From positions 1,612,001-1,676,000 of the forward strand of contig OY253668.1 of the NCBI GenBank assembly GCA_958009085.1: 64,000 nt of DNA. The letters are read 5' to 3'. Made by a program: the position numbers and the translations under genes. The notes under the pieces are model-generated. The model searched no databases. It saw only the letters and a program-made list of their open reading frames with translations, and was not told where the DNA came from. The stretch is from Protoeuglena noctilucae. Lineage: Eukaryota. Shown here one piece after another: positions 3,153 to 54,253 of the stretch (the first letter of the stretch is position 1; each line of letters opens with the position of its first letter).

Positions 3153-5505
3153 ATGCTGAACCGAGCTTCCCCATCCGCAGGCTCCATCTGCGGGTCGCTG
3201 GCGTCTCGTCTCGAGATGAACGCAGCCGTGGGCGTCCGGGCGCACTGCGCCGCTGGCCCCGAGTCCCGCGCATGCAGCAGGAGGTTGTGGAGAGTGGGTT
3301 CCGTGCACTGCGCTCCGCGCAGCCCCGTGCGCACGCGAGCCGCCCAGGGTGAGTGCCACAGCCGAGACGCCATGCTTCGTGTGACCCAGGGCAGCTTATG
3401 ATGACCCGCCGCTCGCGATGCCGTCGCGCAGACGAAATCCTGGCCCAGAGTGCCTTCGACAAGCTCTGCCTGGACGGGGAGAGGCACTACTCGACCGTGT
3501 CAGGTCAGGCTGCGCTCGGCATCACGGCATGCAAGGCAGCGCCATTTGCTGGGGTGGACTGGATCAAGCATCCATGCGCTGGCTTGGAATGCTGCCCACC
3601 CCGTCGCCGGTCTCGACAGTGGCTGCCCCGTCTGTCTCTGCGCAGTGCACGGTGGCGAGCGGGGTGGCCGTCCCCGTGTGTCTGACTCGCTGACGACGCC
3701 CATCGTCCAGACGTCGACCTACTCGTTCAAGAACACTGCGGAGCTGATCGCGTACCAGGAGGGCAAGTACGGGTCGTTCGAATACGGCCGGTATGGGAAC
3801 CCGACCACGAAGGTGAGCCTGTTCACTCATGCGGACCCTGGCATGCCCACTCCCTTGCCGAACGCCGCCAGCTGGGCGGTGGTGAGCAAGGCACACTTTC
3901 TCAGCCTCTCAGCTGCCAACGCAAATAGCCCCATTTCTTGGGCTAGGGCGGTCCCAGCGCGGCTCGGCAGTGCGCATCGCTTGCTTGCGGTCCACAGGCG
4001 GCGGAGGAGAAGCTGCACGTCATGGAGGGCGCGGAGGACTGTCTCATTTCTGCCTCCGGCATGTGCTCCGCGACGACCATGCTCCTGGCCCTCGTGCCCC
4101 CTGGGGGCCACATCGTGACCACCACGGACTGCTATCGCCGCACGCGCCAGTTCATCCAGACGCTCCTGCCCAAGATGGGGATCTCGGCATCTGTCATCGA
4201 CCCTTCCGACCTCAACGGCCTGCAGGCGAGGAGGCCTGGGGCGGCGGCGCTGCTGGTTGGCCCAAGCTAGCCGCGAGTGTCCCTCTTGTGCCGAGCCTTG
4301 CGCCTGCACCTCCGTCTCCCGCAGTCGGCGCTGGACAACCACAACGTGACCCTCTTTTTCTCCGAGTCCCCGACGAACCCCTACCTTCGCTGCGTCGACG
4401 TGCCGCGCATTGCGGAGCTCTGCCACGCCAAGGGTGCCATCGTGGTCATCGACTCCACTTTCGCCACGCCCATCAACCAGCAGGCGAGACCCCCTCACGC
4501 TCTGTCGCACTCGGTTCTGCCCAGCTGCGCTTGCGGCCGTCTCGCTGACCGCCGCCCTACTGTCGAACGTGCATGGGGAACCACCGCCCACGCAGGCGCT
4601 TGCCCTGGGTGCGGACCTGGTGCTGCACTCGGCGACCAAGTACCTCGCGGGCCACAACGACGTGCTCGCGGGGGCCATCGCGGGCAAGGCGGACATCGTG
4701 CGGTCGGTCCGTGCACTCCACAACGTGCTCGGCGGGGTCATTGGTGAGCACTGCGCCCGCGTCGGGATGCCAAGCCGCCTCCATGGCATCCCGTTGACAT
4801 CCTGGATGCACCTGCGCGTGTTTGCAGACCCCCACGCCTCCTACTTGGTGCTCCGCGGCATGAAGACGCTCGGACTGCGGGTGGAGAAGCACAACAGGAG
4901 CGCCATGGAGATCGCGACGCGCCTCGAGGCCCACCCCCGCATCGCCAAGGTCCACTACCCGGGCCTGGCCAGCCACCCCGACCACGCCATCGCCAAGGCA
5001 AGAGTCTGGCGTTGGCACAGCGAGCCCGTTTGATGCGGCCCCAAAGATAGCGAGTTTCAGCCCCAAGCGCCGTAGGACTGTTAGCGTGCTGAGCCTGTCC
5101 CGTCCCATCCCGCTTGCAGGCTCAGATGTCCGGCTACGGCGGCGTCATTTCATTCGAGGTGGACGGCGGACTGGAGGAGACGGCGGCCTTCATCGACAAC
5201 TGCCGGCTGCCCTACATCGCGCCCTCGCTGGGCGGAGTCGAGTCGCTGATCGAGCAGCCCGCTGTCATCTCCTACTGGGACCAGGGCCCGGAGGTGAGAA
5301 GGTGGATTGGGCGCATGCGACGGGGCGCGCGGCCTGCTTTCTGCCGGCAGCGGCCGCCGGATCCCCGGCTCGTGCTGCGTGCGTGCAGAAGCGCCGCGAG
5401 CTGGGCATCAAGGACAACCTCGTGCGCTTCTCGTGCGGCATTGAGGACGTGGAGGACATCTGGGCCGACATGGAGCAGGCCCTCCACGCCGTCTTCAAGC
5501 ACTAG
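3153..5505 (+). CDS. CGS1: Cystathionine gamma-synthase, plastid-targeted (Cys/Met metabolism PLP enzyme), 9 exons
   Basis: Transit-peptide-like exon 1, then VHGGER...LTTPIVQTSTYSF...EYGRYGNPTT, SASGMCS, FFSESPTNP, IDSTFATPINQ, HSATKYLAGHNDV (PLP lysine), YIAPSLGGVESL, LVRFSCGIED. Stop TAG at 5503-5505. Confidence 0.93.
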
Positions 5506-15954: not shown

Positions 15955-18900
15955 TCATGCCGCCCCTCGTGACAGCGCGGCCTTCCCGAGGAACAGATCG
16001 TACTGCAGCTGCCTGCCCGAGTCCTGGACGACGTTCTGGAAACGCCGCTGCACCGACAGCGCCATGTTGCCCAGTGAAGCTGTGACCTTGCCCTGGGGCT
16101 TGGTCCCGGCCAACAGGCCCAGGATCCCAGAGTGCATAGCGCGCGAACCCGTGTAGAACATGGCCTGCAAGTCGCCGTTGACCAGGAAGAGCTCGGCCAG
16201 GGCCGCTAGGATGTCCTGGCGAACCAACCGACGCACGCCAGCGACGCTCATCGCGTCTGGTGGCTCCTCGGGCCCAGGGCCCTGTGGGAGGAGGGACACG
16301 AGGTTGTGGTGAATACAGTGGACGCGGCAAATCTTAGGGTGCGCTTGCTTGCCAGAGGCTTGGAATGGAAGCTCGCATGCGCACGAGCCACTCGCCTCGT
16401 CGGCGCTGGCGGCCACGGGAGGCAACCAGCTCGTCGTCCGGGTGTTGTGGTCGATGTAAAAGGTCCGGCCAGTCGCGGGGTCCACGCGCGCCTCCCAGCC
16501 CTCCGGAAGGGCCCCCGGAGTAGCCCGGGCTGGGCTCCCGTTCCGACCCTGCGCCTGTGCTGGCGTCACTTGGGCCCCCCCGGCCGCCCCCAGAACGCTG
16601 CCAAACACCCCACGCAACCGTGCGTTCACCGACATAGGCGCCCCGTCCGCCCCTGGCCCCTGCCCCACCGCAGGCGAGCTGACGGACTTGTGCATGAAAC
16701 CCCGACCCTGCTGCGCACGGGAGGGACTCACGATGCATAGGCTGTATGTCATGCGACGCCAGCCATGGCTGCACTGGCGCAGGTGAGGCGACTGCTGCGC
16801 TACCTTGTCGCAGGCATGTCATAATGCGATGGGCATTGAGCACAAAACTGGGTGGCTTGGAATGAACTCCACTCGCCCGACAAGTGGTGCCGACAAGGGG
16901 CGCCTCACCTCCGGTGCTTTGACCTCGAGCCCCAGAGCGCCAGCCATCCACTGCAGCACCATGACGGAGCAGAAGTAGCTGGCGACGTTGGTGCGGTCCA
17001 AGGAGTCGGCGCAGTTGAACCGCACCAGCTGCAAACGACGGGTTGGACTTAAGATTCGTACGTTGCGTTGATTGGGTATCAGACAGAAACCCATGTCACG
17101 AGGGTGGCTAAGTCTTCTTCTCCCGAATGGACGACGGCATCGTTCGGCATGCCAGATACCCACGCCCCTAGGCCCCCGGCCGCTCACCTCCGCTTGCGCG
17201 CGGCTGAGCGACACGGCGCTCCCGTGCACGACACCGCAGCAGAAGCCCCCGCCCTGCAGCGTGGGCTGCACCAGGTGCCAGAACGCCTCCACGGCCGGCT
17301 CCTCGCCAATTGCCCGCACCGCCCCGTGCCAGTCAAAATCCGCCAGCCGCACCGGCACCCCGTGCGCGCGTGCCATCGACACTGCCGTCTGGAAGTGCTC
17401 CGTCAGCACCAGCTCGCTCTTGCCCGGAGCGCTCCGCAGCAAGTTGACGCAAGTGACGGGGCGCCGCCCCAACGCGGCAGGCGGCAGCCCGACGCTCGAC
17501 ACCCCGCCATCGCTGCCATCCTGCGGCACGTCCAGTCCCCACACGGCACCCCTCGCACCACCCGCTTGCGCACCGTTGCCCGCCACTCCACCCGCGCTGC
17601 TCTGCGACCCGGGCGCGCTCGGCACCGCAGCTGCGAGGTCCGCCAGGCCCAACAGCCCTGAGTCTGGCGCGGGGGCCTCTAGGGCGCTGGCGGGTGCGGA
17701 CCCTCTCCCGCCCCGGTCTGCCTCCGCCCCTCCCCCGCCACCGTCATCGTCCAGGCCAAGCAAGTCGCCCATGACGGGCTGCGAGTGCGGGCCCGAAACC
17801 GTGGCCAGAGGACTCCGGGGAGGGTTCGTGGCCGTGGCAGGGCGGGGCCCCTCCACTGACGCTGCAGGGCTCGGGGATGCGGCGCCCCGGGCGCTCGTGG
17901 CCGCCGCCCCCGTTAACGTGTTGGCCGAGATGCGCTCGAGATACTCCAGAGATCGGTCATACGGCCGCGTGGAGATGACGATCTCGGCCTCGCCCACCTT
18001 GTTCTGCGGTGTCGCAGGACGCATCGCAGTTAGTGGTGGGCGGTAGGTGCTATAAGAAGCGGGCTTGTAAAGCAATGAGCGCAACAGTTCGTGACTGCTG
18101 GGGGGCTTCGGCTGCGCTTCCAGCAGGGTTTGCGCCTCGCCTTGATCTCCGTGGACCAATGGATGGGGACCGTGCCTCGTCGCCAGAGCCACGAGGACCA
18201 CTTGCAGGGAGAGCCCTTGGTAGCGAGGACGAGCTCGCATTCCACCTCGTTGCCCGGCTGGCCCCGCTGGTCCAGGCCCCGGGCGTTGTACCGCGTGCCG
18301 GCATTCCATTGCGAGCGACGGGACAGGAGGACCAGGCTGCGGGCGACGGGCGGGCGAGGGCGTCGGCGACATTCGATAGCATCGCTACCGGGTTCTCCGA
18401 CGGCGCCTGTGGTGGCAGCTGCAACGGTGCTGTCGTGCACACTCGGTCGGCGCTCGCCTGAAGGCCCTGCCGCCGGCGTCCAGAAGGTCCTGCTGCGACG
18501 CGAGGCCTTGTATGAGGACAGGGCATGCGCGGTCCCGAACGCCCACACGGTGCAGGGGGGCGGTGAGGTAGGCGTTCCACCAAAACTCCGGCGAGGGTTT
18601 GGAGTCGAGGAGCGAGCCGGGCAGGCCCCGCGTGAGGTCCGCCGTGAGGCAGTAGTAGTGGCCGCCCTGCACGGGGAATTCCTGCAGGAGCTGCACCCGC
18701 CGCGGGTCGACCTGGTCGGCCGGTGGACCCGTGACAGCGCCCGGGCCTCCTGCCAGCAGAGTGACCCACTGGGACTCCGCGACCGTCAGGACCTGGTGGC
18801 CGCCGGGGAGTTCCGCGGTCGTAGAGACGCGCGTGGCGAGGAGGACGGACGCGAAGCCCGGGCCGTGAATCCAGCCGAGCAGGGCCACGCCCGTCGCGAC

Positions 18901-19401
18901 CTCCGAAGGCGCGCCCATCGAGCTCAGGAACGCAAAGGCCTGGTCCTCGTTGGAGAAAACGTGCTTCCCGCGCGCATCCTCGCGGAACTGCGGCGCCCCG
19001 GTCTGCGGGAAGGGAGCCGCACGGGGCTGATGTGCGTGACACGGCGCCGAGCCTCGCTGCGCGGCCGCCGAGGAGCGCGCGAGACGTGAGACGCAATCGG
19101 CAGCGAAGTTACATCCTAATCCATCGAATGTCAGCCACAGAATCACCTGCAGATCGGCGCTGATCAGGAACACGGCATCCCTAGCCAGCGAGGTCACGAG
19201 CACGAAAAGGTACCCCTGGCCGCCCTGCGGACGCGAGGGGGGCTTGCAGAACCTGGCATTGGATACCAAACAAGCTCATCCATGCCATGACTTCCTCCAC
19301 GGTCCTTCAGAGCGAGCCGGTGGGCTCCAGTGCCATGCAAAATCAGCCCGGCTCCTCACCCCGCCCTTGCCCCCGATGCCAACGACCCGGACCCCACTCA
19401 T
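15955..19401 (-). CDS. SAC9: SAC9-like phosphoinositide phosphatase with WW domain
   Basis: EFWWNAYL, LVLLSRRS..AGTRYNARGL..PGNEVECE, WRRGTVPIHW, catalytic RFNCADSLDRTN, WW domain LPEGWEARVDPATGRTFYIDHNTRTTSWLPP, YTGSRAMHS. Three GC-AG introns. Confidence 0.9.
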
Positions 19402-23531: not shown

Positions 23532-26404
23532 ATGCCGCGGGAAATCATCACCCTGCAGGCGAGCGAAGAGTGAATGTGCTCTGCGGAGCATGCCATGTGG
23601 GTGGAGCGGCCCGAAGGAAAGGCGCCCTCGCGCGCGGAGAGGCGCTGCGAGCGGGAGCGACAGGTCGGCCCCAGGGTCGCCGACCGCGATTGGCAGAGGC
23701 CCGGTCTCGCTTCCGATAGAGTCTTCTCTGAACGCGTAAGTCGTCTGCGCCAGCGCAGGTTGGCCAGTGCGGCAACCAGGTCGGGGCGGAGTTTTGGAGG
23801 AAACTGTGCGCTGAGCACGGCATCAGCAAGGACGGCATCCTCGAGGAGTTTGCCACGCAGGTGAGCCCCGCGATCGGATTTTCGATCTGCTATCTTGTAC
23901 CTGTGATGGTGTGCTGCCCGCACGCGCATCGCTCCTGCGCCCCTCGCGCAGGGCGGCGACCGCAAGGATGTCTTCTTCTACCAAGCGGACGACGAGCACT
24001 ACGTGCCTCGCTCGCTGCTCCTCGACCTCGAGCCGCGCGTGATCAACTCGATCCAGTCGTCGGACATCCGCAACCTCTTCAACCACGAGAACATTTACCT
24101 GTCAAACCACGGCGGGGGCGCGGGCAACAACTGGGCGGAGGGATTTACGCAGGGCGAGTCCGTGCAGGAGGAGATCCTCGACATGATCGATCGGGAGGTC
24201 GACGGTTCGGATTCCCTCGAGGGTTTCGTCATGGTGCACTCCATCGCGGGTGGCACAGGTGGGCGCAGTAATGCAACCGCAGTGTGACATGGAAGGGGTG
24301 CAGTCGAAGCCCGTCGTGAGCCAAACCACGGCTTTTATGAAAACTTATCGTACTGCAACCTCTTGCAACTCTGCACATCGCAGGCTCGGGCCTGGGTTCC
24401 TACTTGCTGGAGACGCTCAACGACCGCTACCCCAAGAAGCTCATCCAGACATACTCGGTGTTCCCCAACCAGCACGACACCTCGGACGTGGTCGTGCAGC
24501 CTTACAACTCGCTCCTGACCCTCAAGGTGACGCCTGCTGACGCGGCATTTGTGGCGCACGGCACAGCCGGCGGCGGCACTACATATATCTGTGGCTCGGT
24601 GCCGGCCTCGCACCCCTCAAATCAAACCTCCGCACCTCGCATCGTGCTGCTGCTTGCCGGGACCGTCCCTGCTTCCACCAAGTGCCACCCCCGCCACCGC
24701 AGCGCCTGGCCCTCAACGCGGACGCGGTGGCGGTGCTGGACAACACGGCCCTCAACCGCATCGCCGTGGAGCGCCTGCACATCGAGAACCCCTCCTTCGC
24801 GCAAGTCAACTCCCTGGTGTCCACCGTCATGGCCGCCTCCACCACCACCCTGGTGAGGGCGGGGCCGCGGCAGCGAACATTGGCTGGTCGCATTGGTAAG
24901 GTGTTGCATAACTGGTTGTCACGCATGGAGAGAAGAAAAGAGTCACAGGAGCTTTGCCACGCCGGTGACCTGCGTTTGCCAGAATGCGCTCCCACCCTTG
25001 CCTGAAACCAGGCACCGAACCCCGTCCCTCGCAGCGGTACCCCGGGTACATGAACAACGACTTGGTGGGTCTCGTGGCCGGCCTGGTTCCGGTGCCCAAG
25101 TGCCACTTCCTGATGACCGGGTACACCCCGCTGACGATCGAGGGGGAGCGCGAGGCGGGGCCCATCAGCACCGTGCGCAAGACGTCCGTCCTGGATGTGA
25201 TGAGGTGAGATGGGATGAGGCGCGGCGAGTGTACAGGGTGGCTGCCACGCGGCTGGGCTTAGCCCACGCGGAACCTCGCCCATCTCACCTGTCATCACCT
25301 CGCCCTGACCCCAGGCGCCTCCTGCACGACAAAAACATCATGGTCTCTCGCATGGCCAAGAACCGAGCCAGCGCCACTGCCAAGTACCTCTCGATCCTCA
25401 ACGTCATCCAGGGGGAGGTGGAGCCCTCCCAGGTGCACCGGTCCCTTGAGCGCATCCGGTGAGGGCGGGGCGGGTTGCAGTGGGGCAAGTGTGATGCGTG
25501 CAGTGGGGCAAGCACGGTTTGCATGCAGTGGCGGTGGGGTTGGGTGCGATGCGTACAAGAGGTGGCCCACCAGCACCATGTCACGATAGTCCTGGTACTA
25601 CTGTGTCCCCAGCACCGTGTGACCAGCACCTTGACCCTCTCCCTGCCTTCTTTGGTGCAGGGAGCGCAAGCTGGCTTCCTTCATCGAGTGGGGTCCTGCA
25701 TCCATCCAGGTCGCCCTGTCCAAGAAATCCCCGTACGTCAAGACCAGCCACCGCGTGTCGGGTCTCATGCTCGCCAACCACACCTCCATCCGCCACCTCT
25801 TCAGCCACACCGTCCAGCAGTACGACAAGCTGGTGAGGGACTCTTGGGATCCCGTGGGAGGTCAAGCCTACTGGCTGACGACCCCCGATGCTTCGCATGG
25901 ACTAAACAGTGGCAATGGCGGCGCGGGGTGTGGTGTGAATTGACGATGGCGGGGTGGGTGTGAAGTGGGGGTCGCTCGTCTGAAGCGGTGGCTTAGGTCC
26001 TCCCCCACGCATATCGTGCTGCGCAGGTCAGCCGCAAGGCATTCCTCGACAGGTACAAGGGGATCGAGGCGTTTGCTGCGGGGGGCCGTGACATCGGTGA
26101 GATGGGATGGGGGATGGGACATGGGATTGATGGATGAGATCACACAGGAGATGGTTCATTGTGGTTAAGGGAGCCACGTGCGGCACTGCGCCTTTTCGCA
26201 ACCCCGCGTCGCTGCCGAGGTTCGAACGCGTGACTCCGCCCTTCCGCTCCCCGACGTGTGAACATCGCGCTTTTGCTCGCAGAGATCGAGATGGAGGATG
26301 CCAGGGAGGTGGTGCAGGGCATCGCGGACGAGTACGCGGCGTGCGAGCAGCCAGACTACCTGGAAAGGAGCGCCAGGGCCGCGTCCCGGCCCGGCATGCT
26401 TTGA
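23532..26404 (+). CDS. TUBG: Gamma-tubulin, 10 exons
   Basis: [100 protein letters not shown]. Confidence 0.98.
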
Positions 26405-41078: not shown

Positions 41079-43846
41079 ATGGACCCCGAGAGGCTCGCCA
41101 GCATGAACCCCGACGGGGGAAGGGATGAGCCTTTGCTCGATCAGATTGCTGCCGCTGCTGCTGCGGAGCCAGGCTCCATTAGGCTCGCGGTGCTCCAGGC
41201 GAGTCGTGCCGGATGCCGGCAGCAAGCCAGACGATGAGGCGCCTGGCTGCGAGCCGCGTTGATTGTCTCCGATCTGAAGACTGAGAAGATCTCACTTCCC
41301 TGGCGTGCCCTTTGTGACTGTGAGCGCTGCTCTGTCCGTCCCTGCAGTCCGGAGACACGTCCATCCCCAGGCCCGAGGAGGGTCACCTGGTGGTCTTCCA
41401 GTGCTCTCACACGGAGCTTCTGAAGAACTCTGATCCGTTCAAGCTCGCCGCGGACGGCCCGGACGCTCCGGGGGACGCGCAGATCGCAGTGCTGGGGCAT
41501 GAGGAGACGCGCTTGGTGGGTTTTGCGAGCCGGCTGTCCCCGATGCGCGCCGCTTTGTCCCTAACTTATTTTGCGTATGCAAGCTCCAACTGTGTGCCTC
41601 GCGCCTGGACCCCGCAGCCTCTCGCCGTCGTCGCTGGGCTGTTTGCGATGCACCCGGGGGGCACGTGCGCCGTGGCTGCCTCGGTCCCTCACTCCTACGT
41701 CACCAAGCGGCCCTTTCACGAGCCCCCTCGCAACGCCACCCCTCGCATCTTCCACATCACGCTCCTCGCGTCATACCCGGATGCCGCATGCCTGCGATCC
41801 ACGGCTGCAGCTCGGGACGACGACGACGACATGGGCTCAGCAGTGCAGCGGGAGGGGTCCGCGGAGACTTCCCGCGGTGAGACTGCGCGGCGTCAGCGGA
41901 TGAGCAAGCGAGAGATGCCACGCCGGGATGCTGGAACGACACGCCGTGCAACATGCCGTGTCATCGCAGGTGGCTGGCAGCCGCTGCACGTCCCTCGGGT
42001 TGCGGCCAAGGTTGCGCTGCCGCCCGACAGCAATTCGACCGATCAGACGCTGGCGGGGTATTGGGTCGCGCTCCAACTCGAGGCGCGGGCGCTTGGTGCA
42101 CCGCCTTCCCTGGACCAGGCGAGCAGCGTGGATGCCGGCATCAAGCCGTGGGGGAGTTTCTTGCGTCGCCATGAATGTACAGTTGGATGACTGAAAGAAC
42201 TTCTGACGTTGGTGCTGCGCCCAGGGCCCGGTTGTGGCGGTGGGCTCAGGCGCAGCGTTGGGCTTCGAGGCGCTAACGAGGGCACAGGAGCTGGCCAGCT
42301 TGTGGGGCGCAGACTGGCCTGACAGGGTCGGCGCAGCGGCCAGCGCGCTGCACGCAGCGGCGTCCTCCCAGGTGTGCGGGATGCAGGGGATTGCGATGCT
42401 CATGGTGTTGCTCACCGCGTCCGTTGCGTGTCAGACGACTGCTAGATAGGCCAAGACCTAAAAGATGGCTTTTGAGAGAGACCCTTGCTGGCGTATGCAG
42501 GGCGCGGTCGGGTTCTCACTCGGGGACATGCCAGCGAGCCAGCCGCCCGCGCTGGTCGAGCTGGTGGAGACGATGCAAGAGGGCGAGAGCGCATTGCTCT
42601 TCTGCGACCGCGGCGACGTGCAGAGCATGGCGCAGGCGGGGCTGCTGACTGAGGTGGCCGTGGGCGGGCAAGGAGCGGCGGGCGCGTGGGCTGCTGTGCA
42701 AGTGCGCTTGGCGAGCGTGCTGCAGCGCAGGGACCTGGGCGGGGGCGCCATCAAAGTCCGCCTGAGCCGCGGGCGCGGGGACTTCCCTATGGACTGCCCG
42801 ATCCAGGACTGCCGGGTGCTCCTGCGCGGCTTGGGTCGCGCGGCGGCGTCGGGCGCCGTGTTCTGGGACTCGCGTAACCAGGCGGGCGCTGGGGAGGACG
42901 GCGCCGTGGCGTTGGATCTGGGCGAGGGTACGGCCCCGGACGGCCTCGAGCGCGCCGTGCGGCTGATGCTGCCCGGGGAGGTGGCGCTGGTGCAGGTGCC
43001 GGCCGGGACTTCCGACAGCGGGTGCGAGTGGGGCGCGGGGCCGCCGGGGGAGGCGTGGGAGTACGTGGTGGAGCTGGTGGGGTTCGACGCGCTGCCGCGA
43101 TTGGACGAGATGACGGCGAGGGAGCTGCTGGCCCATGTGGCGGCGACCAAGCAGGGGGGCTCGCGGGTGTTCGCGCGGGGGCGTGTGGACCTGGCGGAGA
43201 CGCGGTACAAGCGTGCGCTGGAGATCACAAAGCAGCTGCTGATGGGGCTCGACCCGGAGGAGGACGGCGTGGAGCGGTCTGAGGTGGTGGAGGTCTCACA
43301 GACGTGCCTGCTAAACCTCGCCTCCTGCGCGCTGACGACGGGGGAGAACGCCAAGGCTGTGGTGAGGGGCAAGCAGCTGCGGGGCCCGGCAGGGATCGGC
43401 CGTGCAGGTGCAGTCGTGGGGAGGGGGCCCGCGCGACGTGGGCGGGTAGCTGCGCGCGCAGGACTGGTGTCGACGAGCGATCGAGGAGGACGAGCATTGC
43501 GCCAAGGCGTTCCTGCGGATGGCTAAGGCGAAGATGGGCATCGCAGACCTGGATGGGGCGGCGTCGGACCTTGCCAGCGCGCGAGAGGCTCTCGCGGGGC
43601 TGGCTGCAGCTGGTGATGAGCGCATACTTAGGGATTCGCGGCAGCTACTGGCCGGCCCATGCCAGCTCAGCTCGAGCGACCCAGCGCTTATGTTACGGCG
43701 ACGCAGGGCGTCTGTCGAGCGTGGCCGCGGTGCCCGAGTCGGACATCGCCGCTGCGGAAGCCAAGGTCAAGCGGATGGTCGCGGAGGGTAAACGAAAAGA
43801 GAAGGCGGCGTTTGGGGGTCTCTTCGCGGGCAAGGGCGGGCTCTAG
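41079..43846 (+). CDS. PAS1: Multi-FKBP/TPR peptidyl-prolyl isomerase, PASTICCINO1-like (divergent)
   Basis: GRGDFPMDCPIQDC is PAS1-like. LGEGTAPDGLERAVRLMLPGEVALV and WEYVVELVGFD are FKBP-like, followed by TPRs (KQGGSRVF, LLNLASC, AKAFLR) and KEKAAFGGLF. Confidence 0.78.
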
Positions 43847-43937: not shown

Positions 43938-46811
43938 ATGGTTAGCGGCTTTCGTTCGATGGACGTGGAGGCGGCCAATGGCGAGGAGGAGCCCCTGCGC
44001 GGCGGTGAACCGCCTTCGCAAGCGCCTGGGACGTCGACGCTGTTCAGAGGTCGGAAACAACGTTGGCGATGGTCCTGGGATTGGCACTGGGTCGTTTTCG
44101 CAACGACGCTCGCTGGGGCGCTAACTGGGGCAATCATCATTGGTCTGTATGCCGCCCCCCCGGCCAACCGTCATCACCGCGCGCTGCCGAACGTGATAAT
44201 CGACCCCTTCGTCGCGCGCGACTGGCGCGGTCGCCCTCGATCGGTGCGGGGGACGCGCGGCGTGGTCGCGTCCGACGCGGGCGCGTGCTCTGCGCTTGGG
44301 GCGTCCGTCCTGGACCTGGGCGGCAACGCCATTGACGCAGCGGTCGCTACGACGATTTGCGAGGGCGTCGTCAACCCTTCGGCCTCCGGCATTGGTGGCG
44401 GGTGCTTCCTTTTGTACCGGTGCGCACGGTGGCCCCCGCGTCGTGCTTGCTCGCTTCGTGGCGCCGCTCTGGACGCAAGCACGATCCTTGGCATGCACGC
44501 AGGGGTGCGGACGGGACCGCCGAGGTCATCAACGCCCGGGAGTACGCGCCGGCGTCTGCCAGCGTCGACATGTACGCAAAGCACAAAGAGCAGCAGCAGC
44601 GGGGCGGCAAGGCCGTGGCCGTCCCCCTCGAACTGCTCGGGCTGCGGCGCGCGTGGGAGCGACACGGGAAGCTGCCCTGGAAGTCTCTTCTCGAGCCCTC
44701 CATTCGGTGAGCGCCTTGCATTGACCTTGCTGTGTGCATATGCCTGCCTGTGCACAGGTGCCGGGCTCCCATCCGGCTCGACCTCGCTGTCGCAGGCTGG
44801 CCGAGCAGGGGTTCCCTGCGCACGTGTGGCTGGCGGTCAACGTGGAGTTGTTTTACCAAGACATCGCCGCGGACCCGGCCTTTGCAGAGGTGTGGGGGGG
44901 GCCTAGGGAACGCGCGCTGGCACCAGCAGGACACGCTCCCTTCTCCTCTGTTCGCCACGTCACGACCGTTGATGGCCTTCTAAGTACCAACACCTTGCAC
45001 CGTCATGTCTCTTGGCTATCATGAACACCAACCGTCATCGTGTCTCTCCCTTGCGCAGGCGTTCCTGGTCCAAGACGCGGACGGCACGCGCCGCCCTCCG
45101 CACGTGGGCGAGCACTGCTGCAAGCGCCCGGCCCTCGCCGCGACCCTGCGCGCGGTGGCTGACCAAGGCCCGGACGTGCTTTACCGAGGCCCGATGGCTG
45201 CCACTTTGGTGGACGAGCTGAACGCTCACGGGGGCGCCTTCACGCTCGACGACCTGCGGCAGGCGGAGGTGGAGGTCGTGGAACCAGTCAAGACCGAGGT
45301 GTTCGGGATGACCTACCTGGGGGTGGGCCCGCCCTCGAGCGGGGGTGCTGCGGTGAGAGTGCGCGGTCGGCCATGCTACCCACGCCCTGTTCCAGTGCGG
45401 CTCCAGCCCAGCGACGCTCCAGGCATTTTCACCACACACAGTGACCGGGTTTGACCCACCTGACATCCGGCGCCCACCTCTGCGCAGGTGGCGACGATCC
45501 TGCAGATCATGGCGGGATATGCACAGCCCGTGAGCTCCCAGGGCCCGCTGGAGGCGCACCGTCTGACCGAGGCGTTCAAGCACGCCTTCGCAGCACGCAC
45601 CTACCTCGGCGACCCCGGCTGGGGCGGGCGCACGTTCAAATACAGCCCTCGCGCGGACGTGGAGGCCGTCCTGACAGACATGCTGTCGTCAGAGTATGCA
45701 GACACCCTGCGTGCCGCCATTAACGACAACACGACGCTTCCCACGAAAGACTACGGCGGCAAGTGGGCCCCTGACTTTGCCGTGAGAGAGGACCACGGCA
45801 CCACTGGGCTGGCGGTCGTCAGTGAGGACAGCGACGCTGTGGCGGTGAGGCGGACGGGGTGGGGGTGGGGGTAGCAGTGTGGTTGGGGGTGGGAGTGAGG
45901 GTAGCAGTGTGGGTGGGGGTGGGGACATCGGTCAGGGTATCGAAGGGTCTTTGGGTCATTGTCCGGTCACAGAGGGTACCCTGACATGCCCTCGCGTGGC
46001 CTGCGACCCTCCATCGATGCTCCCGACCCAGCGTCGCCGCACTTCTCGCCTGTCGCAGGTCACGTCGACCATCAACACCCCCTTCGGCGCCTTCCTCATG
46101 TCTCCCAGCACCGGCATTATCTTCAACAATGAGATGGACGACTTCTCGACGCCCGACGCGGCTTCGGCATTCGACCTCGCACCCCACCCCGCCAACTTCA
46201 TTGAGCCGGGCAAGCGGCCCCTCAGCTCCATGTCGCCATCCATCGTCGTCGACGCCTCGGGGGTCCGCGCCGTCGCGAGCGCCAGCGGCGGGCCGCGCAT
46301 CATCACGGCCGTCGCGCAGACTTTGTTGCGGCTGCTGGGGGACGGCGCGGCACCCCTGGCGGCAGTGGCGGGGCCCCGCATGCACCACCAGTTGGAGCCC
46401 AACCGCGCGGAGCTGGAGTCGCTGCACCTCAAGGCCCGGGCCTCGCAGCTGGGCATCGACGTGGCGGCCATCGAAGCGTGGCGCGTCCCCGAGGCCGCGG
46501 TGGTCGCCGCCACGCTCGGCACGTCCTACGACTGGTGGGCGGCCGCACGGGGGTACCCAGATGCGGACGGCGATGGGCTGCCGGTCGGGGTTGCGCGTGG
46601 GCAGGCGGGGGTGATTGCGGTGCCTGGCAAGGTGGCTGGGACGCTGTCGTCGCGGGGTCACAACGTGGCTCCGGGAGAGATGATGGGGGTCTGCCAGCTG
46701 ATCGCGGTGGATTTGGAGACGGGGATCCGCGTGGCGGTGTCGGACCCAAGGAAAGACGGGGCACCTGCCGCGCAGGGCGAGGGCGGGAAGCAGAGAGCGG
46801 GCCAGGCCTAG
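43938..46811 (+). CDS. GGT: Gamma-glutamyl transpeptidase (glutathione hydrolase) with N-terminal TM anchor
   Basis: GGNAIDAAVAT..GVVNPSASGIGGG, INAREYAP, EAFKHAFA.R..LGDP, DHGTT (autoproteolytic Thr), TSTINTPFG, NNEMDDFS, PGKRPLSSMSP, GGPRI, SDPRKDG. Confidence 0.95.
45868..45924 (+). repeat. About 30-bp imperfect tandem duplication in a GGT intron
   Basis: gggtagcagtgtgg(t/g)tgggggtggg occurs twice in a row. Confidence 0.8.
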
Positions 46812-47085: not shown

Positions 47086-50000
47086 TTATGCTGGCGAAGT
47101 GTGTGTCGGTTGGGGTTGCGCGACCGCACCGGCACCGCTCGCGTCGCTTCCCTGCCTCTGCCCCTCGGTCGCAGCGTTGCACTCCGGTCCCCTGCCGGCG
47201 CTGTTCACCCACAGCACGAGCTCCTGCTGGCAGCGCTTTTGGACGCGTGTGGTCGAGATGGAAAGCTGGGACTGCGGGGCATCTGCGTGGAGGAGCATAG
47301 ATGAAAGGCGGTATTGAAACTGGCTGCGATGCAAAAGACCCGACTCAACCACTAAAGCATGACATGACGTGGGATAGCGCTGCTGCGTAAGGGTTTAGGC
47401 AATTCGCTCTCACCGTTCGCCAGCTGCTGGGTGTAAAGGAAGGCGTCGGCAGTCACACGCTGGGCCAGGCGATCTGCGTCGGCCCCATATGCCAATCTGC
47501 AGCGATCGTGAAGGGATGAATTGTGACGATCTCACTGGTTGGCCCCAAAGTCGCCAGTCAAGGCTGCAGTTGCCGAGAGCCCAGCTACCACTAGGCGGGT
47601 GTGATGTATGAGACGTGGCATATGTGGAATGCTAGACCCCCAGCGCACCTCAAATCGGGCGGCAGAGCCCCGGAGACGTACGCCTGCACCGTGATGTGGA
47701 CGTCCTGGTAATCGTATTTGCCATCACCGTTCAGATCCTGCCCAGACGCCCCCACAGCAGCCGACAGGATACCTTGTGCCATTGCTGCCGACGCCTCAGC
47801 GATGTCTGCCTGTTGCTGCGCCGTGAGGCCGACGGGGCGGCCCCTCGGCATCCCCGCCAGAGCTCTGCGTCCGCCTGCGCCGCTGGGAGTGCCAGCACTG
47901 CCCGCAGCAGAACTGCCTCCCGTCGCAGTAGTGCTGCCGCCTGTCGCAGTGCTGCTGCCGCCCGCTGCAGTGTTGCTGCCGCCCGTAGCAGCGTCCCCAC
48001 CGCTCCTCGCAGTGTCACCGCCGCTCCTCGCAGTGCCGCCGTCCCTACTCTCAGTAGGGTCGCTGCCACTTGCAGAGCCCCCATCCCCGCCATCCTGGGT
48101 GGCACCGGAGTTCCCACACCTCGGTGGCTGTGCGGGCGGGACGGGCAGAATGCTGCTTAACAGGTCTTGCAGCTGCTGCTGGCTCAAGGGCACAGGCGTC
48201 GACGTTGCAGATGTGCCTCCGTTGTTAAGACCACCCGTGGGGACTTGCGAATGGCTGCCGTGCTTCCCAGCTTCCGACACCGATGCGGTGGCGTAAGCGC
48301 CCGTCATCTGACCCTTGGTCTGGCCAGCGGCTGGGGTGGCACTCGGGTCGGTGGAAAGGTCGACCACAGCGGCGGCCGTGGCCGTGCCTGTGGTCAAAGG
48401 GACGGGGACCCTTGGTGCATGGCATGCATGGATGTCTTCTGCACGACCGTCTGACCGCCAAAGGTGACATAGAGATGATAAATGCAAACGTGCTAGAGCC
48501 GCTGCATGCGTCACACCTGCCATAGGTGTGGCAGGGCCCAGCTGGATCACGGGCCTAGCCACCAAGGCATCGACCGGAGACACGGGCGGTGCCACGCTGT
48601 CGGACTTCATGGTGAAGGTGGTCCCCTGCGCTTGGTTCACCGCTTGGGCCTGGAGCTGCCCCGCAGTGCCGAACAGCTGCACCATCGCCCCCGACAGTTG
48701 GCCCGTCACGTCGGTGCTGGCTGCGGGAGAGGGCCAGGGTAGCTGCCAGTTGCTAGTGAGGACGCGAAGCTATGCGAGTCTGCCAGTATCGGCAGATAGC
48801 GAGCAGAGCAGCCAGGGTTGCAGTGCGAGACGGCATGCAGCTGTGTGTGCCTCACTGTAGGCCCTTGCTCCCAGTGCCGACACGAACACGCAGCACCCTC
48901 CACTCACCGTTCGCGAGGTCCTGGTGGACGTTGATGATGTCGCTGGCCACGTGGGCGCTGTGCTGCTGGAGTTGGGTCATTAGGGATGCGATGGTGGCCG
49001 TCAGCTCGCTCCTCCGAGACGCATCCGAGGGAGCGGCAGCGGATGGCGCCTGCGACAATGGTAACAACTTAAAGTGCTCGTGCACCCCTTCTCATGCAGT
49101 GGCACCCAACGCGCGCATCGACCGACAGCCCGGCACTTGAGCTGCAGGCGCAGTCCCTACTTGCTGGTTCGCTGGCACTGGTTTAAACCCCGCGCCTGTG
49201 AAGGTCCAGTTGGTCGTCTGCTGCAGGGATCGGCCGTTGCCAGCACCCCTGTCACCGCTCGCGGCCGATGACGCGAATGGGAGGCTCCCAATGCCGCGCA
49301 TGGGGTGCGCGAATCCCCCGGCCATTCCCAGCCTGAACGGCCGCATTGCCTGGCCTCCCGCGCGCAGGCTGCGGGGTGTCACGGGGCCAACCCCCGCCGC
49401 CTCGCTGCCCGCCGCGCCTGCCGCCATGCGCTGGCTGACCAGCCTGGCCATCTCTGGCATGTGGCTCCCGCTGCTGTCGTACGCGACCGTGGCAGCGCTT
49501 TCCATCGCTGACTCGATCTTGACGAGCTCGGCCGGCAAGTCCGCATCCAGGGCCGCGAAAGGGTTGCCAGAGTTGTCCTGGGACAGTCGACGTGCGCCCT
49601 TCCCCAGGGCTGACGCCAGCATCGCACCCGCACCGGGGTTGCTGCGACGGGGCGTACACAGGTGACGTGGGGGCTTGGGCAAAGCCAAGCGAGCTCTGAG
49701 CCCAGATCTAGTCTCTAGACTCGCACCCAGGCTGCCCTGGATTCGCAGCTAGGCTGCCGGGTACCTGCTGTGTGTCGTGTGAGCTGCCTCATCCAATCGC
49801 AGCCTCACCCGGTCGATGCCCTGGGCGACGGTGTCGGGGGGCTCGACGTGGGTGGCGGCGTGCCAGATGCAGTCAGGCTGGCCGCTGCGGCACGCAGGCG
49901 ATCCAAAAGGGGCGTCGACGCGCTCCCCCCTGCGGCCGGCGGTGCTTGCGTGGAGGCCGGGGCAGCGGTAGCCTTGGAGGTGCTGCAAGCATGGGGGTAG

Positions 50001-53000
50001 GTATGAAGCATGGGTATGACGCGTCTGAACCTTGTTCTCAGCAGAGAGACCGTTCGTCATGAACAGCCTCGCAAGCAGCTGTCGTGCTCTTACTCGGTCA
50101 TGTCACACCAGGATCGGTCAATGACATAAAATCGTACCTGACCAACTGCAGCAGCTCCTGCCTCGCTGCCACCAGCTGCTGCCAGGTCGCCGCCGCCGCG
50201 TCGAGGTCTGCAGAGAGCTGCTGCGAGTCTGCCATCAGCGAGGTGAAGGGCCCTTGGTTGCTCAGTGCCTGGGCGCCCATCATGGCCATGGCCACTGAAA
50301 CCGGGTTGAGAGCCTGCGAGGGTAAGGACGGGAGGGACCGAAATAACGTGCTGCGGAGCCCGGCACGCTCCCGCAGTGCGCGCACCTTCTTTCGCAGTTG
50401 CCCAGAGGTTCAGCATGCCGTCCAATCCCCGACATTCGACGGTACAATATCACACAGTGATAGGCGATGAGCACCCTCACGTGCCCGTACGCCGCCGTGC
50501 TGGCTTGGATGGCTGTCTGAGCCAGCGCCTGCGCCAGCGTGGCCGGGCTCGCTGTCGTCGCAGCACTCGATCCCCCCGCAGTCGTGGTGTCGGACATGCT
50601 CTGGACGGACATGGTGGTGGCGGAGGCAGCCACCGGGTCGGACTTCAGTGCTGAAGGGGCTGGCATAGACATGCCGCCCTCCGTCACAATCGAGACCTGC
50701 TGCCCCGAACTGGCGGCGGCGAGGAGGCTCAAATCGGCCAACGCGGGGTCCTGCAGGAACTCCTGCAGGCTCAGCTTGCCGTCGCCGTCCACGTCGTTGG
50801 CTGCAACAGCCGCCTGGATCTGCGGCATGGTCAAATTCAGTCCCTCGTTCTTCGCTGCCAGGTACAGCTCCTGCGCGGACACTGCGGGAAGGGACCCACG
50901 GGGGCTGAAGTATTAGTTGGCGCATGGGTTGGTGGTGGCGTAATGAGCGATAAGAGGTGCGACGGCTGGGCGAGGCGCAAGGGCTCAGGCATGGGACATG
51001 GCAGGCGTGGAGTCGAGTAGGATATGTGGCTGGAAGGGTTACGTCATCACTCCCCTTCTCCGTCCTCATCCATGTCCAGGGCATAGAAGCGCTGCTGCAG
51101 GCCAGCCACGTCTTGGGGGCTCAGCACAACCTCAATGGCACCCGTGGGCTCAAACGACAGCTTGGATGCTGGCCTGACGGGCGCCTGTGGCTTCTGCCCC
51201 GAGAGGGACGCCATGGCCTGCGATCAAGTAAGAGCAGGACATGTTCGGGCCAAGGAATGACCGAAGTCGACTAAGCGAGGCGACACAACGCGAATGAGAC
51301 CGACATGCGCCTACAGTGCGAGTGGAAAGGTGGCTAGGTAGGCCTAGCGCAGATACGAGCCAGCTCGCACCTGTTGCATCCAGGCCGTCACGTCCGTGGT
51401 CGAGATGGTGGTCCCTGTAGGTCCGCTGCTGGTGGCCTGGACCTGCGATGTGCTAGCGGTCTGTGGCGCACCGGACATGTTGGCGATGGAGGCGGATACG
51501 GGCGCAGAGGAGGCGGCAGACTGGCCCTGCGTGCTGCCAGCCGATGAGGCAGCCGCTTGCGTAGACAGCGACTGCGTCTGAACCGTGGCGGGCGTGGCGA
51601 CGACGGGGTCCGACTTGAGGGTGGCGGAGGCCGTGGCCGTGGCCGGCGGGGTGCCGATGGACGACATGAGGAGGTTGGCCTCGTCTTGCATGAGCGTCTG
51701 CATGTACGCCTGCACCGCCGACTGCGCGGCCGCCTGCTGGGCCGCCTGTCCGCTCGCGGGCGCCGTCGAGTTGGTCATGGCTTTGAGCCACGTCTGGAAT
51801 GCAGCTGACGCCGCCTGGTCCAGCGCAGTCTGCTGCGCCGCGGGGTAGCCAGTGGCCGGCGTCGTCACTGGGTCGCTCTTCTGCAGGTTGCTGGCCGCCC
51901 ACTGTTGCATGACCTGGTTTAAGGGGCTGGCGTTCGCCCCCGATGCCGCGGCTCCGGACGCCAGGTACTGAGCGATGGCCGACGCGACTTGCGGGTTGAG
52001 GGTAGGTGCCGCGCCTGCCGACGCCCCGGCTGCTTGGCTGGCGTACTTGCTGATGGCGGACATGACGAGCTGCTGGGCCAGAGGGGACGACAGGGCCGGT
52101 GCGCCGGGCACGGCGCCTCCCCCCGCAGATGCCGTCATCTGGTTCGCGATGGCTGCGGCAATTTGCCCCTGGCCCAACGCTCCCGTCCCTGCGGCGCCCG
52201 TCAGTGCACTCGCCGCGCCCCCGGAGGTCAGCCACTGCTGGAGAGCCAGCTGAGCCGCGGCGCTGGGGTTTGCCCCGGTGGCAACGGAACTGGCGCCCGT
52301 ACTAGTGCCCGCCTGGGCTCCCAGACGTGCCTGCAGCCACTCGCTGGCGAGCACCTGCGCCAGCGAGGGCGCCGGCGCTGTGGACGCAGCGCTCCCGGCC
52401 TGCTGCGCCGCCTGGGTCATGGCCGCGGGTGCCATCGTCTGCTGGAGAGAGCGGGGCCGGGAAGGCCTGCCACCCGCGCCCATGAGGCGGGCCTGAGGAG
52501 CCAAGCCACGGAGCTTACGCGACCCCTGTGGCTGCCCGGCGGATGAGGCAGGCCCAGACGCAGGGGTGACCCCGGGAGTGGTTGCGCCGGCACTTGGCTG
52601 CGGCGTGGAGGGGCCGCCCAGGGCCGCAATGCGCACGCGCACGGCATCCCGGGCAGCCAGGTGGTCCCTGCGTGCAGAGGGGTCACATAACATTTGGATA
52701 TCCACACCAGGCGCCTGGTTTTAGTCCAGCTCCCCGGTGCGACCGGCGCCAGGTGCTGCGACAAGGCTGGGAGCGCGCATGCGAAGTGTTGTGCCAGGGC
52801 CAGCCTCACTTGAGTCGCTGGTCGATCAGGTCAACCAGAGTTTGTGCGTCGGATTCCGCGGGCAGCCCCCGCTGCTGCAGATACGAGCTGAGGTTGGACG
52901 TGTGGCCTGACAAGACGTCACCCACCACCCCGCGGATGTCGCCCGGCGCCTGCGGGACGGGGAGACTTAGAACTGAAAACGACCGTGACCCGTTTGACGA

Positions 53001-53387
53001 GTGGAGCACGGTTTCGCGGACGCCCTGAGCCCACCTGGTCCCCCGTCTGGGGAGCGGGCGTGGGCACGAGCTGCTGCAGGTGCTCCTGCACCTTCCCAAG
53101 CATGTCGAGGAGGCTGAGGCTCGTGTCCGCGCTGCCACCGCTTGCCGGCGTGCCGTCGGATTGCACCTGCGCTTCGGGAGAGCGCAGATGGGCCGCCGCG
53201 ACCGTCAGCAGCGGGCTGCCCCTGAACTCGCCGCGTCCCTCACCGCTGCGAGCCCCCTGACCCTGTCGGCGTTGCCGACAGACCCCATTTCTTGTTCATC
53301 GCGCAGTGCTGTCCCTGCGGTCGCGAAAGCGACGCCCACCGCGAGGGCGAGGGCAGCCAGCGTCGCGAGGCGCCCTGCGACGCGCAT
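47086..53387 (-). CDS. Large secreted Ala/Ser/Thr/Gln/Gly-rich protein with EF-hands (3' end uncertain, about 47086-47600)
   Basis: Signal peptide MRVAGRLATLAALALAVGVAFATA. EF-hand pair DMDEDGEVSAQE / DVDGDGKLSLQE, further DLNGDGKYDYQD loop, long low-complexity exons. Confidence 0.72.
47895..48045 (-). repeat. Degenerate 21-bp coding repeats (GGxTARS / TGGSS/T units)
   Basis: GGTARSGGDTARSGGDAATGGSNTAAGGSSTATGGSTTATGGSSAAG seen in the translation. Confidence 0.75.
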
Positions 53388-54253
53388 CGCAGCGCAGCGG
53401 GGCCTCGGGCTTGCCCGGCGGAGCAGGCGGTCAGAGACGGAATGAAACGTGGTTGCGTGCGCGCAGAGCGACCTCGGGCGCCCTCAGAACGGCGCTGTGG
53501 GATGCGTGGCGGATGCAACGACTTCAAGCCGCGCCTTCGTCCAGGCGCAAGGGGAAAAGCCAAGAGAACAGCGCCGAGACTACCATGCACACAGGACGCC
53601 AGCGCGAGAGAGCGGCAATTTGTTCGGCGCGCGCGAGGAAAGTGCGCTGCCCACCCTCGTCTGATCCGCCTCGCTCATCACCCTTGACGGCCGATCCTTC
53701 ATAGCCTCTTTCGGTATGATATTTGTCCACCATCGCTGCCAAAGCGACGTGTTGAGCGGTTTCGCTCGTGTCAGAAAGGTCGGGCGGAGGACATTGCCAC
53801 CGTCTGCACCACCGTTAGTGACAATGATGCACGTCTTGCCTCTCGCCGCTGGGTCGGCAGCTCTTTCTCTCTCCACCCATCCACACTTGTCTCTCGCGCT
53901 GCGCGCCGTCTGCGGGGTGGCACAGGGCGCGAATGTCTCGACGATAACCCCCCGTATCTGTGCATTCCTCGGGCGCCGGCAGGCGAGCCGACGCGGCGCT
54001 GATTCGCGCCGTCACGGGTGGGCACCGCGAAGGTGCGGAGCAAACAGAACGTGGGACGTAGCCACTACAGTTTGCAATGCACGCGCGACCGGGGCTACGA
54101 ACTTCTTTGGGGCAACTGGATAGGCCCCTGGCTCCCAGGCCCGTCGACCGGGCGCGTGGGCCGGGTCGTGTCACCCGATGCGGTTCGCTGCGCGCCGCTT
54201 CCCGCAATCGCTCCGGCCCCTCGTCGCTCGCAGAGCCGCGTGCATGCGTTCCA

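Follow-up and report, generated by a model that had tools for sequence, protein, structure and literature searches.

The window analysed here is a stretch of 64,000 nucleotides (nt) of Protoeuglena noctilucae (contig OY253668.1, positions below are those of the window). Its minus strand carries an algal-type gene for a protein with one pair of EF-hands, and the loop of EF-hand 1 is interrupted at 51054-50882 by a 173-nt intron-like segment in phase 1 which starts with GG and ends with AG. This segment is probably an intron of the ordinary kind, in phase 1, with a donor that has turned into GG. It would be mostly or wholly retained, such that the protein is truncated at 627 amino acids (aa). 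The intron looks crippled and retained because the RNA keeps the segment while seven neighbouring introns are removed.

RNA was evaluated using the contigs of three runs from 2 samples of one study (environmental RNA). Such contigs show the dominant path, as the assembler drops rarer forms. The region 50480-51216 is present as one unbroken piece with 0 differences in X1 record 1 (3,446 nt, depth 35.5) as well as in X3 record 11 (3,292 nt, depth 13.6), and X2 record 8 (508 nt) covers 50700-51207 unbroken, again without any difference. The X1 and X3 contigs splice out seven other introns, all of which are GT-AG. No joint at 51055/50881 or elsewhere inside 50480-51216 was found in the dominant forms represented by the contigs of the three runs. 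Moreover X1 contains 0.77 of the sampled words of 50300-51700, which is the expected remainder if only the two neighbour introns (320 of 1,401 nt) are missing. In the RNA contigs examined the transcript occurs mainly with the segment retained, i.e. the segment is not absent from mature messenger RNA in the contigs of any of the three runs and no functional GG-AG junction appears in them. The initial annotation had proposed a working GG-AG intron. This is not supported, since the junction is lacking in the contigs of all three runs while seven GT-AG introns are removed in the same contigs. That annotation had itself named complementary DNA not using the GG-AG junction as the finding that would speak against it, and this is the picture as far as contigs tell.

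The G at 51053, the second intron position, is real and no base-calling error. A separately assembled DNA contig (X8, depth 153), which may be the window's own source, is identical to the window over 48300-53500 and shows 0 other letters at 51053. RNA contigs from three runs of a different study cover the position with 0 other letters as well. The check for a base-calling error suggested in the initial annotation hence upholds the base, and the sequence quoted there (GG donor, AG acceptor, 173 nt, read-through into TGA) is exact on the minus strand.

Read on this strand, the site is ...GAC ATG GAT GAG GAC GGA GAA G/GGGAGTGATGACG ... CCCTTCCCGCAG/TG TCC GCG CAG GAG (slashes mark the boundaries). 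CCCTTCCCGCAG occupies 50893-50882 and provides a 3' AG with a pyrimidine-rich tract. Reading through past 51055 gives GGG GAG TGA TGA, with the stops at 51049-51044. Composition and length support the segment as intron-like: its GC content is 0.61 compared to 0.52-0.63 in the seven RNA-confirmed introns of the gene, it shows no codon periodicity (position GC 0.58-0.65 in every frame) and its 173 nt lie inside the local range of 91-202 nt among 16 reference introns. The second A of a CTAAT motif at 50916-50912 is located 31 nt before the AG at 50882 and 8 nt before another AG at 50905. The motif could act as branch site for either acceptor, from which we draw no conclusion.

The reference set of 16 introns consists of the seven RNA-confirmed introns in the focal gene and nine in a gamma-tubulin gene (~23.5-26.4 kb); the latter were placed by reading pieces of open reading frames (ORFs) and sequence, whereby only exon 23907-24284 was formally matched to gamma-tubulin. 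Position +2 is T in 15 of these introns and C in one. G is found at +5 in 15/16, at +3 in 14/16 and at -1 in 14/16, A at +4 in 11/16, and the acceptor is CAG in all 16 and GCAG in 14 of them. The candidate, AAG/GGGAGT ... CCGCAG, agrees with this local consensus at -1, +1, +3, +4 and +5 as well as at the acceptor, leaving +2 as sole mismatch. A U2-type GT or GC donor is not present (GG at 51054-51053), while the U2-type donor consensus outside +2 and the local size and composition are. The earlier description of AG/GGGAGT as matching the consensus save for +2 is thereby borne out against the 16 reference introns. The GT/GC relaxation which it had seen across the window is real in that a GC donor exists, but modest, with only one of the 16 introns concerned. 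This gamma-tubulin gene (23534-26404, plus strand) has nine introns by reading, the first GC-AG and the other eight GT-AG. Its intron 1 reads CAG/GCGAGC ... CGCAG/GTT and lies between MPREIITLQ and VGQCGNQ; exon 23907-24284 matches Pfam Tubulin with an E value of 2.4e-25 and a gamma-tubulin in PDB with 1.9e-51.

An intron is needed between the upstream and the downstream ORF of the gene. In the transcript built from the seven RNA-confirmed joints, the ORF in frame 0 comprises at least 506 codons up to the TGA at 51049-51047, and the one in frame 2, with at least 785 codons, begins only past the TAA at 50915-50913. Since the two ORFs do not overlap, frameshifting cannot join them, and since two long ORFs of one transcript lie in different frames, a piece with a length of 2 mod 3 has to be removed. 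The exons on both sides have a GC content at third codon positions of 0.76-0.84 in the joined frame, hence the downstream ORF codes for protein or did so until recently. Frame 1 of the transcript likewise contains a wrong-frame ORF of 459 codons (51120-49252, minus strand), which extends over several exons as well as the retained segment. Long ORFs thus easily arise by chance at this GC content, and the length of an ORF is by itself a weak argument. A single database protein, P0001 (865 aa, contig of 3,449 nt), comes from this transcript. It begins at VSAQ, the first start codon past the last frame-2 stop, as expected of a gene call on the retained form; P0001 is probably derived from the same RNA data and so not independent. 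No junction-spanning protein was found using the 54-aa part of the upstream exon among proteins of 96-2,000 aa, which is weak evidence.

To place the boundaries, junctions were enumerated from GT, GC, GG, GA and AT starts at 51157 to 51047 to AG ends at 50912 to ~50780, respecting frame and absence of stops. This results in 169 frame-preserving, stop-free pairs (23 GT, 32 GC, 34 GG, 61 GA and 19 AT). EF-hand loops were recognised by a PS00018-type pattern. Two of the 169 junctions yield two such loops, both at 36-residue spacing, namely GG 51054/50882 with the product DMDEDGEVSAQE and GA 51048/50882 with the product DEDGEGELSAQE; an EF-hand pair in the sense of two 12-residue loops ~36 residues apart is found in these products only. 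The GA junction is implausible, as its donor T/GATGAC fits nothing. The initial annotation had stated that only the GG donor yields a canonical loop, which is true save for this one implausible donor. In six frames of the 64-kb window the PS00018-like loop was found once, as EF-hand 2 at 50795-50760. A second loop at the correct distance is therefore no chance product. For scoring, 38 loops from three unrelated database proteins were combined into an ad hoc EF-hand profile. With this profile, EF-hand 1 scores 10.0 bits for the GG-AG product, 5.0 for the retained form, 4.1 for the GA alternative and 3.3 for a GT-AG alternative described below. Taken together, GG and AG are supported as the boundaries that rebuild a canonical EF-hand pair. 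The candidate intron splits the loop between residues 7 and 8 of EF-hand 1, and the peptide across the junction of the GG-AG product reads ...DMDEDGEVSAQELY.... Such protein logic can place the historical boundaries of an intron without proving that the intron is still removed.

Most simply, a change from T to G at +2 in an ancestral AAG/GTGAGT would have made the GG donor. U1-type recognition of the rest of the donor may persist, with the +2 base being wrong for efficient catalysis, and most mature transcripts, or all of them, would keep the intron. Translation of the retained form would then stop at the TGA TGA two codons into the intron, and the product would have 627 aa and half an EF-hand, as against 1,490 aa for the full protein. 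As the downstream ORF is intact and codon-biased, either the change would have happened recently or a minor share of spliced transcripts would keep the full-length protein in use, and the gene may be decaying or be kept by a minor spliced form.

Several points weigh against a mostly or wholly retained intron. A spliced minor form would be lost from contigs, which show the dominant path alone. All RNA stems from one study with 2 samples, and a condition-specific splice is possible. The 865-codon downstream ORF is intact over 9 more exons with its codon periodicity kept, which fits ongoing translation, hence some splicing, at least as well as recent decay. The ancestral GT is deduced, and no orthologue was found in the searches made. 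Furthermore the donor is near consensus at all positions but +2, unusually so, and compensated non-canonical donors tend to be near consensus elsewhere.

It is possible, if rather doubtful, that the segment is a working non-canonical GG-AG intron cut between 51055 and 51054 and between 50882 and 50881, perhaps inefficiently or conditionally. Removal would lead to the full 1,490 aa and the retained form of the contigs would be an unproductive or default fraction. The boundaries restore a canonical loop with the 36-residue spacing, the donor fits the consensus at five positions next to a consensus acceptor, the downstream ORF is intact with coding periodicity, C at +2 is tolerated in the organism (1/16 reference introns) and minor isoforms are invisible in contigs. 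In addition, human GG-AG and GA-AG junctions are documented (PMC4176328). Nevertheless the GG-AG junction occurs in no contig of the three runs, although splicing has removed 7/7 of the other introns covered by the same molecules, and the searches made revealed no database protein across the junction. In human genetics, donor variants with T-to-G at +2 are generally known to do away with normal splicing. A regulated variant appears unlikely, in which the GG donor is used inefficiently or conditionally with retention as default, and GG-AG splicing switches from the 627-aa to a 1,490-aa calcium-binding protein. If true, a +2G donor would function naturally in this alga, which is GC-rich and has a spliceosome that already takes C at +2.

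The next alternative is a canonical GT-AG intron. The nearest GT had been dismissed in the initial annotation as shifting the frame. This applies only in combination with the acceptor at 50882, whereas 51050 with the AG at 50906-50905 gives an in-frame intron of 146 nt. True use of this intron would leave EF-hand 1 degenerate, with a 9-residue insertion in its loop (DMDEDGEGDPRGSLPAVSAQE). It has both GT and AG and keeps the frame, and CTAAT is located 8 nt before its AG; by our reading several reference introns have a branch-like YTNAC 6-15 nt before the AG. However, the 51050-50905 junction is found in no RNA contig, the T at +5 of the donor GTGATG occurs in 0/16 reference introns and the T at -4 of the acceptor in 0/16. 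Moreover the junction breaks the loop pattern, changes the loop spacing from 36 to 45 and lowers EF-hand 1 from 10.0 to 3.3 bits. We thus regard it as quite improbable.

Very improbable is that the TGA represents the true protein end and that the downstream exons form a long spliced 3' untranslated region or an internally started second cistron. The dominant transcript form does have the in-frame TGA TGA. Against this, the third codon positions of the downstream exons are strongly biased to GC, consistently in one frame over six spliced junctions, and the start of the downstream ORF falls inside an EF-hand loop, with its first ATG (~50826) after helix F of EF-hand 1 and without a signal peptide of its own. 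Finally, the site sits in a short G run (GAAGGGGAG), but a base-calling or assembly error hiding a true GTGAGT or GCGAGT donor is hardly conceivable, and a G-run error is excluded because X8 and the RNA contigs of the three runs show 0 differences across the site.

Further intron types were considered and rejected. In U12-type introns the donor RTATCCTT and the branch motif TCCTTAAC are highly conserved; here the donor reads GGGAGTGA and no U12 branch motif was seen in the segment. For a structured, self-splicing or endonuclease-cut intron (group I/II, bulge-helix-bulge, IRE1-type) both folding and Rfam are against it. The minimum free energy of the segment is -47.4 kcal/mol versus a shuffle mean of -57.6 kcal/mol (z = +2.2), i.e. 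it folds less well than shuffles, and 0 Rfam matches to the segment at E <= 1 were obtained; no structured RNA or small nucleolar RNA was found. An introner or repeat origin was discarded, as no other copy of the segment exists within the window, the best other matches being 25-31 nt at ~84% identity.

A donor-site variant with intron retention is an already known phenomenon. The situation resembles human disease alleles with donor loss, in which one non-consensus +2 base in a strong donor leads to a kept intron and at once to an in-frame stop. In contrast to those alleles, it is here the reference state of a wild organism, seen in environmental RNA, and the ancestral GT is deduced. GC-AG introns share the relaxed +2 with other positions near consensus, as intron 1 of the gamma-tubulin gene in the window exemplifies. 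However, C at +2 constitutes a tolerated minority class, whereas to our knowledge G at +2 is no recognised donor class in any lineage. The site is a clean natural case, as G at +2 is its sole departure from the consensus and the organism uses some GC donors. It is also relevant for annotation: gene callers would split the gene in two or force a non-canonical intron, and neither is the main transcript according to the RNA. A testis-specific GG-AG junction in human CPSF3 and GA-AG junctions in FGFR genes have been described (PMC4176328). These share with the candidate a U2-like consensus round a non-GT donor and a nearby GT that could assist (here 4 nt downstream, at 51050), but they are defined by cDNA junctions, while no junction is present in our RNA contigs. 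T-to-C is the only change at +2 known to keep activity. Of such donor variants, ~15-18% keep some normal splicing (PMC8375439).

The host protein is lineage-specific and probably secreted. It has a predicted signal-peptide-like hydrophobic N-terminus, long low-complexity regions rich in Ala, Ser, Thr and Gln, and one EF-hand pair in the middle of the protein. With the segment removed the product has 1,490 aa, comprising 625 codons up to DMDEDGE and the C-terminal 865 aa corresponding to P0001; with the segment kept it has 627 aa. Seven introns of the gene are confirmed by RNA contigs, all GT-AG, and three 5' introns are predicted only because no RNA contig lies over 52650-53500. The downstream exon alone reaches 20.8 bits for Pfam EF-hand_7 (cut-off 30) and 18.1 bits for EF-hand_1 (cut-off 25.4), both below gathering. 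The pair resembles that of calmodulin in its two 12-residue D-x-D-x-D-G loops, 36 residues apart and flanked by helices. Unlike calmodulin, it is set in a 1,490-aa low-complexity protein for which no orthologues were found in the searches made. TGTAA poly(A) signals are absent after two stop codons, which decides nothing as to the taxon. The features are summarised in Table 1.

Table 1. Features of the host gene and of the candidate intron (window positions; slashes mark splice boundaries).
Feature	Position	Strand	Basis or remark
Host gene	47086..53387	-	RNA-supported joints and ORF reading; three 5' introns predicted only
Upstream neighbour intron, GT-AG, 153 nt	51218..51370	-	spliced in RNA
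EF-hand 1 loop, first seven codons (DMDEDGE) and first base of codon 8	51055..51076	-	translation
Candidate intron, GG...AG	50882..51054	-	kept in every RNA contig covering the segment
Donor dinucleotide GG	51053..51054	-	+2 is 51053; G also in the DNA contig and the RNA contigs
Tandem in-frame stops TGA TGA, terminating the upstream ORF on retention	51044..51049	-	read-through translation
Alternative GT-AG intron, 146 nt, GGGA/GTGATG ... CTTCAG/C	50905..51050	-	enumeration; no RNA contig joint
CTAAT, possible branch-point motif	50912..50916	-	holds the last frame-2 stop, TAA 50915-50913
Acceptor AG, context CCCTTCCCGCAG/T	50882..50883	-	window sequence
EF-hand 1 loop remainder, (G)TG TCC GCG CAG GAG = V S A Q E if joined to 51055	50868..50881	-	
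EF-hand 2 loop DVDGDGKLSLQE, uninterrupted	50760..50795	-	36 residues past the EF-hand 1 loop in the GG-AG product
Downstream neighbour intron, GT-AG, 167 nt	50314..50480	-	spliced in RNA

Searches for relatives were made at several levels. P0001 revealed no relative among metagenome contigs, and a 22-nt probe of the exon end gave 0 matches in them. In representative proteins, the matches of P0001 were limited to fragments from the same species (P0003-P0006, which are read-through calls on genomic DNA) and EF-hand proteins of a generic kind (P0007, P0008), and the Atlas search for relatives of the gene returned no usable match. The genomic fragment P0003 of the same gene differs from the window near ~47960 (minus strand) in at least one residue (NTAEGGSS versus NTAAGGSS in the window). 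Public data therefore include a strain that differs slightly.

Near the C-terminus of the host protein a third EF-like 12-residue loop, DLNGDGKYDYQD, is encoded at 47702-47737 (minus strand). Its position 8 (Y) departs from the PS00018 pattern, and it lacks a partner loop. A coding exon of the same gene contains imperfect 21-nt tandem repeats with 77-87% matches (47903-48055, minus strand), which encode heptad-like units rich in Gly, Ser, Thr and Ala (GGDTARS / GGSSTAT).

The window as a whole has a GC content of 0.63-0.74 per 2 kb and its genes are eukaryotic and rich in introns. Pfam matches were obtained for exon-sized ORFs at 45464-46808 (+), 3947-4267 (+), 18388-19275 (-) and 42462-43523 (+). 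They match gamma-glutamyltranspeptidase, a pyridoxal phosphate (PLP) enzyme of Cys/Met metabolism, a SacI homology domain and FKBP, and represent ordinary eukaryotic housekeeping genes around the focal gene.

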